From sequence record PP216085: DNA of 64,000 nt. One strand, given 5' to 3'. Made by a program: the position numbers and the translations under genes. The stretch comes from Escherichia phage vB_EcoM_HZ_ZJUN4. Below, piece after piece: positions 43,640 to 47,322 of the stretch (positions are counted from its first letter, which is position 1; each line of letters begins with the position of its first letter). Below the pieces are notes generated by a model that worked only from the letters and a program-made list of their open reading frames with translations, had not been told where the DNA came from and did no database searches.

Positions 43640-44017
43640 ATGTACAAAGTGTACGCGGATTATCAGGCTAATCCATCTAAAAAGCCAAGCTGTCAAATAG
43701 GATGGGCTCATGATACTTTGCTTGAAGCAGTAGATGCTGCTCAAAAATTGGGATATAAATATGTAGAGATTGTTCAACTTCCATCAGGAACAGTTATTAC
43801 TCTCGAAGAGTTTAATAATATTAAACCAAACTTTTTACTTTTTGCAGGTGATAATTATTATCCTCGTGGTGGATATGATGATTTGATTGCGTATGCTGAA
43901 ACAGAAGATGAATTACGCCAAATTATTGAAGACAATAAATCAAAACGATTTGGCGATAGTTTCGACTGGTGGCAAATCGTAAATGCCCATACACATACTA
44001 TTGTTGATAAAGGTTAA
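43640..44017 (+). CDS. hypothetical protein
   Basis: Start at ATG 43640 after the previous stop (track ORF 43607 overlaps the upstream gene); 125 aa. Confidence 0.5.
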   Translation: MYKVYADYQANPSKKPSCQIGWAHDTLLEAVDAAQKLGYKYVEIVQLPSGTVITLEEFNNIKPNFLLFAGDNYYPRGGYDDLIAYAETEDELRQIIEDNKSKRFGDSFDWWQIVNAHTHTIVDKG

Positions 44018-44019
44018 TA

Positions 44020-44307
44020 ATGATTCTTTATGCGAAAGTATCATCCATTGAAAATGGATATAAATATGATCAAGAAGCAGCTAAAGCCTTGATTGATGAT
44101 TATGGCATTTTAACATGTTTTGAAGTTGAAAAGGTTTACATTGACCGTTCATCTTCTCAAGTTAAATTAGTGAAGGAAGACCGTAAATTTAATACAGTAA
44201 ATTTTGATTTCTTTATTGAAACAGAAAAAGGTCCTCTTGAATATGATATTTTCAAGAATCCTTTGGGTCTTGAATGCATCGTAAATATGTATCATCATAA
44301 ATGGTAA
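44020..44307 (+). CDS. hypothetical protein
   Basis: 95-aa ORF tightly packed behind the previous gene. Confidence 0.5.
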   Translation: MILYAKVSSIENGYKYDQEAAKALIDDYGILTCFEVEKVYIDRSSSQVKLVKEDRKFNTVNFDFFIETEKGPLEYDIFKNPLGLECIVNMYHHKW

Positions 44308-44404
44308 ATATGCTTTAAGAATTATTTGTTATTATTAACTCATATCGCACTGATTAATACCCTCTATCATCAAGGGTTCTTGCTTGAGAGCCTTTGTTAA
44401 TAAT

Positions 44405-44477
44405 TGGGAATTAGCCAAGTTGGTAAGGCACTGGATTTTGATTCCAGGATGCAAAGGTTCGAGTCCTTTATTCCCAG
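44405..44477 (+). tRNA. tRNA-Gln (anticodon UUG)
   Basis: Cloverleaf folded by hand: acceptor TGGGAAT/ATTCCCA, anticodon loop TTTTGAT, T-loop GGTTCGAGTCC. Confidence 0.8.
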
Positions 44478-44478
44478 C

Positions 44479-44565
44479 GCGAGAATGGTCAAATTGGTAA
44501 AGGCACAGCACTTAAAATGCTGCGGAATGATTTCCTTGTGGGTTCGAGTCCCACTTCTCGCACCA
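44479..44565 (+). tRNA. tRNA-Leu (anticodon UAA), type II, CCA encoded
   Basis: Acceptor GCGAGAA/TTCTCGC, anticodon loop CTTAAAA, long variable arm, GGTTCGAGTCC. Confidence 0.8.
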
Positions 44566-44570
44566 AATTT

Positions 44571-44644
<74 letters not shown>

Positions 44645-44654
44645 ATTTAATTTA

Positions 44655-44728
44655 CTCCGTGTAGCTCAGTTTGGTAGAGCGCCTGATTTGGGATCAGGAG
44701 GTCCAAGGTTCAAATCCTTGTATGGAGA
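44655..44728 (+). tRNA. tRNA-Pro (anticodon UGG), no encoded CCA
   Basis: Anticodon stem CCTGA/TCAGG, loop TTTGGGA; GGTTCAAATCC T-arm. Confidence 0.8.
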
Positions 44729-44730
44729 CT

Positions 44731-44820
44731 GGAGGCGTGGCAGAGTGGTTTAATGCACCGGTCTTGAAAACCGGCAGTCGCTCCGGCGACTCATAGGTTC
44801 AAATCCTATCGCCTCCGCCA
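44731..44820 (+). tRNA. tRNA-Ser (anticodon UGA), type II
   Basis: Acceptor GGAGGCG/CGCCTCC, anticodon stem CCGGT/ACCGG, loop CTTGAAA, long variable arm. Confidence 0.8.
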
Positions 44821-44825
44821 GTTTT

Positions 44826-44901
44826 GCTGATTTAGCTCAGTAGGTAGAGCAACTCACTTGTAATGAGAAGGTCGGCGGTTCGATTCCGTCAATCAGCACC
44901 A
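44826..44901 (+). tRNA. tRNA-Thr (anticodon UGU)
   Basis: Acceptor GCTGATT/AATCAGC, anticodon loop CTTGTAA, GGTTCGATTCC T-arm. Confidence 0.8.
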
Positions 44902-44902
44902 A

Positions 44903-44977
44903 GGCCCTGTAGCTGGAAGGTTCAAGCAAGCGACTCATAATCGCCAGATGGTGGTTCAATTCCACCCAGGGCCACCA
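44903..44977 (+). tRNA. tRNA with CAU anticodon (Ile by synteny with T4, reading AUA after modification; Met not excluded)
   Basis: Acceptor GGCCCTG/CAGGGCC, anticodon loop CTCATAA, GGTTCAATTCC T-arm. Confidence 0.7.
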
Positions 44978-44990
44978 AATTAAGAATTAA

Positions 44991-45077
44991 GGGGAGTTAT
45001 CCCGTAGAGGTAGCGGTGTGGACTGTAAATCCATTGTCATTGCGACTCGGGTGGTTCGACTCCATCACTCCCCACCA
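44991..45077 (+). tRNA. tRNA-Tyr-like (anticodon GUA), type II
   Basis: Acceptor GGGGAGT/ACTCCCC, anticodon stem GTGGA/TCCAT, loop CTGTAAA, long variable arm, T-arm GGTGG-TTCGACT-CCATC; D-arm pairing imperfect. Confidence 0.6.
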
Positions 45078-45081
45078 ATTT

Positions 45082-45156
45082 GGATGTGTAGCTCAATGGC
45101 AGAGCGATCGCCTGTTAAGCGATTGGTTATAGGTTCGAATCCTATCACGTCCGCCA
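45082..45156 (+). tRNA. tRNA-Asn (anticodon GUU)
   Basis: Acceptor GGATGTG/CACGTCC, D-stem GCTC/GAGC, anticodon stem ATCGC/GCGAT, loop CTGTTAA, GGTTCGAATCC T-arm. Confidence 0.7.
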
Positions 45157-45160
45157 AATC

Positions 45161-45236
45161 CGAGGCATAGCTCAGAAGGAAGAGCAAGGACCTTCTAAGT
45201 CCTAGGTCGTAGGTTCGATCCCTACTGCCTCGACCA
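45161..45236 (+). tRNA. tRNA-Arg (anticodon UCU)
   Basis: Acceptor CGAGGCA/TGCCTCG, D-stem GCTC/GAGC, anticodon stem AGGAC/GTCCT, loop CTTCTAA, GGTTCGATCCC T-arm. Confidence 0.8.
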
Positions 45237-45252
45237 ATTAAGTGAGGAAAAT

Positions 45253-45603
45253 ATGAAAGGTAATGTTTATTTAGTAGTTCATGATTTAACATTCTATTTT
45301 AATCACAATGACACTGTTATTTCTGAACGTGTAATTAATTTACTTTATCAGCATGCAGATTATGTTTATGTCGAAAACGAATACGGTCATTGGCAATTTC
45401 TCAAAAATCGTTCATTTGGTTTAGATGGTTACGAATACTTTGAACGTAAAGACCTTTTAGATAAAATTCCGTTATCTACACAATATCAAAATCATAAGTC
45501 TTTATATAAATGCCGTCCAATTCGAAATGCTGAATCTGCGTATGAAGTAATTGATTTATGGCGTAAACGTCGTGGACAGGTTGATGCTTTAAAAGAATAC
45601 TAA
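45253..45603 (+). CDS. hypothetical protein
   Basis: 116-aa ORF starting 17 nt after tRNA-Arg, with a GAGG RBS. Confidence 0.5.
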   Translation: MKGNVYLVVHDLTFYFNHNDTVISERVINLLYQHADYVYVENEYGHWQFLKNRSFGLDGYEYFERKDLLDKIPLSTQYQNHKSLYKCRPIRNAESAYEVIDLWRKRRGQVDALKEY

Positions 45604-45771
45604 GAAACCGGGTCGCTACCGGTAAGTCGTCGGACTGATGTTCCCTGGGTAAGGAATTGTGTTAATAAATCTTTATGATTTGTTGATGCCCTCTTACATC
45701 ACAGCAGAAACGGCGCACCGAATTATCGATTCGAGGAAATATCTTTGCCGTAAGCCGAGTAGCGTTTTTGA

Positions 45772-45863
45772 CGGAACGTTCGGATATGGTCGAGATATGG
45801 CCTTTTAAAAATATTAAGTAGCGTCAACTGCTTAATAACCGGGTTCGAATCCCGGCGTTTCGT
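45772..45863 (+). ncRNA. tRNA-like element (acceptor stem plus T-arm with divergent core); possible stable RNA or degenerate tRNA
   Basis: 7-bp acceptor-like helix CGGAACG/CGTTTCG flanking a T-arm CCGGG-TTCGAAT-CCCGG; ORF-free, GC-rich. Confidence 0.3.
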
Positions 45864-45914
45864 ACAAACACTTGCCTTAGCAGGTGGAACCCCGACAAGG
45901 TTGCCGCAAGGCTT

Positions 45915-45943
45915 AGCCCCGACCGAAAGGTTGGGGCTTTTTA
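45915..45943 (+). terminator. intrinsic terminator (repeat copy 1)
   Basis: 10-bp stem AGCCCCGACC/GGTTGGGGCT with GAAA loop, then TTTTT. Confidence 0.75.
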
Positions 45944-45944
45944 G

Positions 45945-45952
45945 TATAAATA
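45945..45952 (+). promoter_or_regulatory. late promoter box TATAAATA
   Basis: Exact TATAAATA 40 nt upstream of the 45992 ATG. Confidence 0.45.
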
Positions 45953-45991
45953 TAGTAGTGTATTAAATCACGAATTAAAACAGGAAATAAG

Positions 45992-46465
45992 ATGAAATCA
46001 TATGCTCAATTTTTAAATGAAGTGGTGTTAAATGAAGCATCCGCTTCAGATGTTCGCGCTGTAGCAACTGCTGCTATTAAAGCTGGTAAATATTCTTATA
46101 AAGATGCTTCTGACGAATCCCGGTACAAGTTCTACGACGATATGAGAGCTGAAGGCTTTGTGGGTAACTATGTTACCACCGCCTGGAAAAGTCTGGTTGC
46201 TACTGGTGCGGCTTTCGAAAAACCTTCCGGTAAACCTGCTCCTAAAGCAGATCCTAAAGCTGCACAAGAAAAAAATATTGTTAAAGGAATTATCGCTAAA
46301 TATGAAGCTATACTTAAAGAGCTTTTAGTAATTAAAACCGAAGGCCAAAAATTAGCCCGTGCCTATAGTTTCAAAGATAATCCACATGCTCATGACCTAG
46401 AGTATGTTGAAGACATCCAAAAAATTATTAAAGACCGCATTTGGTCTGCTAAACAAATCAAATAA
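45992..46465 (+). CDS. candidate internal (capsid-targeted) protein, unrecognised family
   Basis: 157 aa; N-terminus MKSYAQFLNE matches the 10-residue CTS of T4 internal proteins; flanked by identical terminators. Confidence 0.6.
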   Translation: MKSYAQFLNEVVLNEASASDVRAVATAAIKAGKYSYKDASDESRYKFYDDMRAEGFVGNYVTTAWKSLVATGAAFEKPSGKPAPKADPKAAQEKNIVKGIIAKYEAILKELLVIKTEGQKLARAYSFKDNPHAHDLEYVEDIQKIIKDRIWSAKQIK

Positions 46466-46472
46466 CATTCTT

Positions 46473-46501
46473 AGCCCCGACCGAAAGGTTGGGGCTTTTT
46501 A
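46473..46501 (+). terminator. intrinsic terminator (repeat copy 2)
   Basis: Same hairpin as 45915-45943, then TTTTT. Confidence 0.75.
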
Positions 46502-46590
46502 GTTTGAATCGCATAGAGAATGCTGTTACGGATAATAACAAAGTAATAAATAATTAATAACTGACCGATAAATTATTTCAAGGATTTTAA

Positions 46591-47154
46591 ATGAAAACCT
46601 ATGCCGAATTTTTAACCGAAGCAGCAAAATTACCATCTGAAGCAGAACTTACTAAAGTATTCTTCCAATTGGACCCAAAAGACCGTGGCGATTTTCTTAA
46701 GTGGAAAGCTAAAGCTATTGAAATGTATAACATTGATAATAGTTCTTTTACGATGAGTCAAGAAAATAAATTCAATAAAGCATTTTTCAAAATTTCTAAG
46801 AAACTGGCATCTGGCGCTCAGGTTCCTAAATCTGCCTTAGCTACTCCTGAACGTGCGCCTGTTAAAATTTCTAAGAATATGTTCGACACTAAAAAATACG
46901 TTAATGCTTTGAATAAAGCTCTTGATGCATTGGATGATGCAAAGAAGGCAGCCCGTGATCTTCAAGACGTGTACATCGATTTTGATCGTAAAACTAAAGG
47001 TTCTATTTCAAATAGCGAACGCAATAGTGTAAGCGTTTATTCTGATAGCCTTGACGTTCTTGGCGATGCGTATACTGAAATTAAAAATCGTATTAACACC
47101 GCATCTAAACTAAAAGCTGCCGCAGAAGCTATAATAGCTAAACTAGGTAAATAA
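46591..47154 (+). CDS. candidate internal (capsid-targeted) protein, unrecognised family
   Basis: 187 aa; N-terminus MKTYAEFLTE matches the T4 CTS; Lys/Ala-rich body. Confidence 0.6.
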   Translation: MKTYAEFLTEAAKLPSEAELTKVFFQLDPKDRGDFLKWKAKAIEMYNIDNSSFTMSQENKFNKAFFKISKKLASGAQVPKSALATPERAPVKISKNMFDTKKYVNALNKALDALDDAKKAARDLQDVYIDFDRKTKGSISNSERNSVSVYSDSLDVLGDAYTEIKNRINTASKLKAAAEAIIAKLGK

Positions 47155-47163
47155 TTTTAAACC

Positions 47164-47188
47164 CCCTATCTAAATGATAGGGCTTTTT
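47164..47188 (+). terminator. intrinsic terminator
   Basis: CCCTATC-TAAAT-GATAGGG then CTTTTT. Confidence 0.6.
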
Positions 47189-47322
47189 GGTATCTAGGCC
47201 TTTCTGGACCTCTCTAAGAATCATTTAGTTTCTACCCTTTATAATATATTATCCTATCCTTTAATTGCCCCTCCCTGTCCTAGAATTCCCTAAAACTTTT
47301 TAAAAAATTTTTTCACAAAACT

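Follow-up and report, generated by a model that had tools for sequence, protein, structure and literature searches.

Tyrosine and asparagine tRNA genes in a T2-type module of the tRNA cluster of Escherichia phage vB_EcoM_HZ_ZJUN4

The DNA analyzed here (the window) is a stretch of 64,000 nucleotides from Escherichia phage vB_EcoM_HZ_ZJUN4 (sequence record PP216085), a Tequatrovirus whose tRNA cluster region is 98.5% identical to those of EcNP1 and Nami. ARAGORN places ten tRNA genes on the + strand between 44405 and 45236, in the order Gln(UUG), Leu(UAA), Gly(UCC), Pro(UGG), Ser(UGA), Thr(UGU), CAU tRNA, Tyr(GUA), Asn(GUU), Arg(UCU). An initial annotation, made from the letters alone, had counted ten tRNAs against eight in T4, which agrees with ARAGORN and with the T4 annotation, and had put a type II GUA tRNA of 87 nt and a GUU tRNA between the CAU tRNA and tRNA-Arg(UCU), exactly where ARAGORN calls them. 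The features of the cluster and its downstream flank are as follows:

44405..44901, + strand: tRNA-Gln, Leu, Gly, Pro, Ser and Thr, the T4-like left part of the cluster (ARAGORN, Rfam, 94% identical to T4)
44903..44977, + strand: CAU-anticodon tRNA, T2-type allele (diverges from the T4/T6 allele beyond about nt 12; T4 homology breakpoint at about 44922)
44991..45077, + strand: tRNA-Tyr(GUA), type II, 87 nt, CCA encoded (ARAGORN, Rfam 30.2 bits, covariation, RNAalifold)
45082..45156, + strand: tRNA-Asn(GUU), 75 nt, CCA encoded (ARAGORN, Rfam 74.1 bits; identical to T2L tRNA-Asn, AJ880101)
45132..45158, unstranded: predicted preferred 27-bp site of the SegB homing endonuclease, GGTTCGAATCCTATCACGTCCGCCAAA, running from the T-arm of tRNA-Asn to just beyond its CCA
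45161..45236, + strand: tRNA-Arg(UCU), T2-type allele (ARAGORN, Rfam; sequence unrelated to T4 tRNA-Arg(UCU))
45253..45603, + strand: 116-aa ORF equivalent to T2L trna.2 (phrog_3355, a family of unknown function), within the module absent from T4
about 45600..45719, + strand: rnaD homolog (T4 species 2 stable RNA), with 110 identical positions against nt 4-119 of T4 rnaD (T4 and T2L annotations)
45726..45864, + strand: rnaC homolog (T4 species 1 stable RNA), 136/139 identical to T4 rnaC
45915..45938, + strand: intrinsic-terminator-like hairpin (10-bp stem with 7 G-C pairs, then TTTTT)

All ten tRNAs pass Rfam model RF00005 (gathering score 29), with Asn at the top and Tyr at the bottom; the covariance-model check proposed with the initial annotation thus leaves both genes above threshold. 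The cluster contains no segB, as had been noted: ORFs of at least 40 aa there are confined to frames that overlap tRNAs. Eight of the ten tRNAs encode CCA; tRNA-Pro lacks it and most others have it, as stated before, and tRNA-Gln is to be added to the exceptions. After each of these two genes (tRNA-Gln at 44405-44478, tRNA-Pro at 44655-44729), the next tRNA (Leu and Ser, respectively) starts within 1-2 nt. Dimeric Gln-Leu and Pro-Ser precursors are known from T4, and the tight spacing together with the missing CCA is consistent with precursors of that type. A scan of 43900-46100 found five sigma-70-like sites against 5.8 expected by chance; since such sites are no commoner than chance, no promoter is claimed for the cluster. 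The hairpin at 45915-45938 likely marks the end of the transcription unit for tRNAs and stable RNAs.

The Tyr-Asn arrangement is already known: it was sequenced and mapped in T2L in 2008 and is routinely annotated in Tequatrovirus genomes. The T2L cluster (GenBank AJ880101, 2,371 bp; Brok-Volchanskaya et al., NAR 2008, PMC2330249) shares with the window the order CAU, Tyr(GUA), Asn(GUU), Arg(UCU), trna.2, rnaD, rnaC; tRNA-Asn is identical, tRNA-Tyr is 1 nt apart, the Tyr-Asn segment is 98.3% identical, and segB is absent from both. Unlike the window, T2L lacks tRNA-Thr and carries the ORF trna.1 between Ser and the CAU tRNA; the presence of Thr and absence of trna.1 in the window make its left half T4-like. 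There are 445 phage records, AJ880101 among them, that cover no less than 80% of the 176-nt Tyr-Asn segment. The same ten tRNAs are annotated in records such as Nami, and the arrangement is also found in the ECO07P2 and PinkRuby records, whose tRNA-Tyr is identical to that of the window. In T6 the gene is again 87 nt long, with two differences (anticodon stem, T-stem) and the same variable arm and GUC|A cleavage context (PMC13096335). The T6 gene differs in being followed by segB, which drives its tandem amplification; with no segB adjoining the window tRNA-Tyr, that route is not available in cis. The tRNA-Tyr of T5 and SP15 has a variable arm (UGUCAUUGCGACUCG) and T-arm (GGUGGUUCGACUCCAUC) identical to those of the window and, as here, 4 nt between acceptor stem and D-stem, but T5, from a different phage family, has another acceptor, D-stem (CUGU/GCAG) and anticodon stem, with about 85% identity overall.

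Tyr and Asn genes adjoin one another in three gene orders in different lineages: phage-plasmids have Asn-Tyr-Thr, FelixO1-like phages Asn-Tyr-Asp and T-evens CAU-Tyr-Asn, the counts being lineage-redundant. About 270 E. coli plasmids of about 110 kb carry the block Asn-Tyr-Thr(UGU), for example pEC881_2 (109 kb; positions 527-773 of locus L013); these are probably phage-plasmids, and their Tyr gene belongs to the same family with a long acceptor-D connector, at about 84% identity over the segment. A host origin for the window genes was rejected: chromosomal E. coli tRNA-Tyr and tRNA-Asn genes do not match them at E <= 1e-3, and the best E. coli matches are the plasmids of about 110 kb.

Many close relatives have an extra 190 bp between Asn and Arg (positions 1658-1847 of the ECO07P2 locus, L003, and 1654-1846 of the PinkRuby locus, L004). 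In both, this is a 114-nt spacer with an inverted repeat TGTGACA...TGTCACA, in which ARAGORN at a relaxed threshold found no degenerate tRNA, followed by tRNA-His(GUG). Their accessory block is thus Tyr-Asn-His, all with GUN anticodons (queuosine family). The window lacks the insert, and its junction reads CCAAAT / CCAATT.

Codon use offers one explanation for the retention of the two genes. In an AT-rich phage proteome, where codons for Tyr (UAU) and Asn (AAU) are far more frequent than in the host, extra tRNAs would lift late decoding with no link to defense. Of the codons in 78 window ORFs, 4.5% are Tyr and 5.65% Asn, with TAT at about 2.1 times and AAT at about 2.4 times their E. coli K-12 frequencies, and with both enriched, simple supply could explain why the genes are kept. 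However, T4, whose codon bias is the same, grows although it lacks both genes; the block of sibling phages includes tRNA-His(GUG) despite depletion of His codons (1.5%, counted in the window); and experiments tie the near-identical T6 gene to escape from the defense system Septu. We therefore hold pure supply to be unlikely, while noting that supply and counter-defense are compatible rather than mutually exclusive.

The anti-Septu and anti-retron roles of tRNA-Tyr are already published, in sister phages. During infection, Septu EcB88 (PtuAB) attacks E. coli tRNA-Tyr, which it cuts within the variable arm (Chihara et al., Nat Commun 2026, PMC13096335). Growth of T6 under Septu is restored by overexpression of T6 tRNA-Tyr or by its SegB-driven amplification, and northern blots together with this rescue establish expression and function of the T6 gene; T2 is resistant, whereas T4, without tRNA-Tyr, is sensitive (PMC13096335). 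As T6 tRNA-Tyr is itself a substrate of EcB88, alongside the host tRNA (PMC13096335), protection against Septu comes by dosage, not resistance. Retron-Eco7, by contrast, cleaves host tRNA-Tyr but not that of the T5-like phage SP15, with the phage variable loop required (PMC12673091), and T5 tRNA-Tyr likewise evades retron-Eco7 (Azam et al. 2024, PMC11555353). By homology with these genes, the window tRNA-Tyr would be a working tRNA with a counter-defense role.

The structure of the window gene bears on whether it can work at all. Its parts, all on the + strand, are:

44991-44997/45067-45073, +: acceptor stem
44998-45001, +: acceptor-D connector, 4 nt, UAUC
45002-45005/45013-45016, +: D-stem, CCGU/GCGG
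45006-45012, +: D-loop, AGAGGUA
45018-45022/45030-45034, +: anticodon stem
45025-45027, +: anticodon GUA
45035-45049, +: variable arm, 15 nt including a 3-bp stem
45050-45066, +: T-arm
45074, +: discriminator A

All the marks of a bacterial type II tRNA-Tyr are present (GUA anticodon, long variable arm, G1-C72, A73), and in the register with a 4-nt connector the D-loop has A14, G18, G19 and A21 in canonical places. The canonical connector of 2 nt (positions 8-9) is replaced here by one of 4 nt. Homologs were sampled from fetched records plus 103 IMG/VR loci matching a pattern across the anticodon loop and variable arm, which gave 29 distinct tRNA-Tyr sequences from T-even, Karamvirus, T5-like, Vequintavirus and FelixO1-like phages and from plasmids of about 110 kb; as the search pattern fixes both the anticodon loop and the variable arm, these carry no covariation information. 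Across the 29 homologs, 99.1% of cells in the cloverleaf are paired and 10 pairs are changed on both sides; slid controls pair at 44-60%, and the observed covariation score was reached by 0/500 shuffles. RNAalifold independently predicts the same cloverleaf.

The initial annotation had described an imperfect D-arm and suggested that the gene might be degenerate or otherwise unusual. A pseudo-tRNA with a damaged D-arm would show a marginal covariance-model match, and the Rfam score (30.2 bits, gathering score 29) is indeed marginal; the single-sequence minimum free energy fold is also no cloverleaf (-29.3 kcal/mol, z = -0.91; z = -2.0 for tRNA-Asn), and a C.C mismatch appears in the D-stem if the connector is given its conventional 2 nt. 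Each of these points has another source. Single-sequence folding is uninformative for tRNAs, which is why comparative analysis was used instead. The mismatch arises only in the wrong register: the stem UCCC/GCGG implied by a 2-nt connector pairs in 66.4% of cells, with one position C.C in 29/29 homologs, while CCGU/GCGG pairs in 100% and shows a compensatory change from C-G to U-A in four T5-like sequences. The Rfam model itself, like RNAalifold, picks CCGU/GCGG and keeps its 2-nt connector by sliding the acceptor stem by 2 nt; this shift absorbs the long connector at the cost of acceptor and T-stem pairs, so that the weak score reflects the connector and not decay. The D-arm is sound, and what had been called imperfect was a register error.

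Connectors of 4-5 nt (UAUC, UAUU, UAGU, UAAU, UAUA, UAAUU, UAUUU) occur throughout the phage tRNA-Tyr family, including the functional T5 and T6 genes of the same architecture, and are therefore no argument against tRNA function. A note in the T5 record describes its tRNA-Tyr with a changed anticodon as an efficient amber suppressor, which implies that E. coli charges and uses tRNAs of this architecture. ARAGORN makes no Tyr(gta) call at 18 of 113 pattern matches, the 5-nt-connector (Karamvirus-type) variants being missing from its calls. A tRNA-Sec reading (RF01852) was rejected, with 34.4 bits against a gathering score of 47 and a GUA anticodon where UCA is required. Covariation in the homologs and the published function of the T6 and T5 genes (PMC13096335; PMC11555353) contradict degeneracy, which we judge very improbable. 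The window tRNA-Tyr is not degenerate; its true oddity is the acceptor-D connector of 4-5 nt.

Comparison with T4 defines what the two genes belong to. T4 has the order Gln-Leu-Gly-Pro-Ser-Thr-Ile, segB, Arg, rnaD, rnaC, and aligns with the window by blastn as follows:

43828-44922 of the window: T4 73113-72014, 94% identity
44922-45603 of the window: no T4 counterpart
45603-45947 of the window: T4 71168-70825, 95% identity

The Gln-Leu-Gly-Pro-Ser-Thr part and the rnaD/rnaC part are thus 94-95% identical in the two phages. Between them T4 differs in having segB between the CAU and Arg tRNAs, other alleles of both tRNAs, and no Tyr, Asn or trna.2; a module of about 680 bp (3' part of the CAU tRNA, Tyr, Asn, Arg, trna.2) replaces the T4 segment made of the 3' part of tRNA-Ile, segB and tRNA-Arg. 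The two genes had been described as lying where T4 carries its small stable RNAs. In T4 that gap is filled by segB and the stable RNAs follow tRNA-Arg, so the space between the CAU tRNA and Arg is the segB, or homing-exchange, slot. That the Tyr and Asn genes are diverged T4 species 1 and 2 RNAs has rough proximity to the tRNA cluster in its favor, nothing more, and is scarcely credible given that T4 rnaD and rnaC lie downstream of tRNA-Arg, that the window has its own copies at 45600-45864 (95-98% identical to T4), and that 44991-45156, in the alignment to T4 that had been proposed as a refutation, gave no blastn match to either RNA.

The remaining members of the module and its flank deserve comment. 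The T2L counterpart of the CAU tRNA is annotated as tRNA-Met(CAU) in AJ880101, yet the best E. coli matches of the window gene are genes annotated as tRNA-Ile (ileX type; 76-82% identity over full length), with which it has in common the C4-G69/C5-G68 pairs and an anticodon stem of GCGA/UCGC. A tRNA-Ile2 that depends on lysidine and reads AUA is the probable identity, and the tRNA-Met label given by ARAGORN and many GenBank records is probably wrong. The window tRNA-Arg has no blastn match in T4 tRNA-Arg. A Pfam search with the trna.2-like protein gave no match; the stop of its ORF overlaps the annotated 5' end of rnaD (45600), so that a protein-coding gene of the same orientation separates tRNA-Arg from the stable RNAs. 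Further downstream, a terminator-like hairpin element (CCCCGACCGAAAGGTTGGGGCTTTTT) is present in three copies (45912-45982, 46470-46540 and 47163-47193), which bracket two paralogous ORFs (45992-46465, 157 aa, and 46591-47154, 187 aa), both phrog_2280 (unknown function). T4 lacks these ORFs between rnaC and e.8, and the arrangement suggests a tandem insertion or duplication with repeated terminators at its borders.

The window tRNA-Asn aligns to RF00005 over model positions 1-71 with no non-canonical pairs flagged. The identity elements for AsnRS are the GUU anticodon and the G73 discriminator; both are present in the window gene (anticodon at 45114-45116; discriminator G, then CCA). Positions 36-41 read UAAGCG in the window, UAAGUU in T5 and UAAUCC in host asnT. 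In E. coli tRNA-Asn(GUU), a secondary target but one of biological relevance, AriB, the nuclease of PARIS, cuts at U36AAUC|C41; T5 tRNA-Asn is one contributor to PARIS escape, and a U39 substitution in tRNA-Lys abolishes AriB cleavage (PMC12409363). G39 and G41 of the window tRNA-Asn suggest resistance to AriB and a possible anti-PARIS role. AriB also reads elements distant from the cleavage site (PMC12409363), and with tRNA-Asn being only a secondary target, G39/G41 need not confer resistance. Escape from PARIS also calls for replacement of tRNA-Lys(UUU), a tRNA missing from the cluster, so that tRNA-Asn could not be enough by itself. Elsewhere, Karamvirus and T5-like loci carry GUU (Asn) tRNAs of 83-85 nt with a long type-II-like variable arm (e.g., GUCAGAAAUGAC), as at 974-1058 of the Karamvirus PG7 locus (L012), where the copy is annotated "tRNA-Asx," and in L014, L029, L037 and L053. 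These keep the host-like UAAUCC motif, and their variable arm is unusual for an Asn tRNA.

The window tRNA-Asn gene also contains the predicted SegB target. The preferred SegB site lies in T2L tRNA-Asn, and in T4 x T2L crosses SegB cutting there leads to replacement of the T2-type module; the site is described as beginning GGTTCRANTCC and ending CCAR, with distinguishing bases G6, A16, G18, A26 and A27 (PMC2330249). Its coordinates in the window were placed from the wording of that description, and 45132-45158 agrees with every base named. The window cluster thus reads as a segB-less (T2-type) allele with an intact predicted SegB homing target.

Taken together, the two genes are quite probably bona fide phage tRNAs of a T2-type module, with tRNA-Tyr most likely serving in counter-defense and tRNA-Asn probably doing likewise. 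Gene identity, structure, homology and module boundaries come from the present analysis, whereas tRNA-Tyr expression, its anti-Septu and anti-retron role, and SegB cleavage in tRNA-Asn come from literature on near-identical genes. The T2-type right-hand module comprises the CAU tRNA, Tyr, Asn, Arg and trna.2, with His between Asn and Arg in some relatives. Its Tyr and Asn genes would share a transcript with rnaD/rnaC and the remaining tRNAs and mature through host RNase P, yielding tRNAs whose encoded CCA and expected identity elements should make them competent for translation. When PtuAB nucleases of host Septu or retron-Eco7 cut the variable arm of host tRNA-Tyr upon infection, the phage copy would sustain tyrosine decoding, by dosage under Septu and, under retron-Eco7, through a longer, cleavage-resistant variable loop. 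Where a nuclease such as PARIS AriB depletes tRNA-Asn, the phage tRNA-Asn probably does likewise, by way of its substitutions at cleavage-site positions 39 and 41. The DNA of tRNA-Asn would at the same time be the preferred target for a T4-type SegB, by which the module could be overwritten in co-infection.

A further-reaching proposal can be put forward only tentatively, and we think it somewhat improbable: that the long connector is an adaptive deviation, and that Tyr, the G39/G41 Asn and the His gene of siblings form a "counter-defense tRNA island" directed against several tRNA-cleaving systems rather than at codon supply. The connector could, for example, place the variable arm where PtuAB-type nucleases have less success in binding or cutting it while TyrRS still charges the tRNA.

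Two traits of these tRNA families are possibly under-appreciated, namely the conserved 4-5-nt connector of phage tRNA-Tyr and the G39/G41 signature of T-even tRNA-Asn. For the phage itself, the predicted homing target implies that its allele would be a recipient sensitive to SegB. The analogy with T2 further predicts that the phage would be less sensitive than T4 to defenses that cleave tRNA-Tyr, which would be relevant to the choice of T-even phages for therapy.
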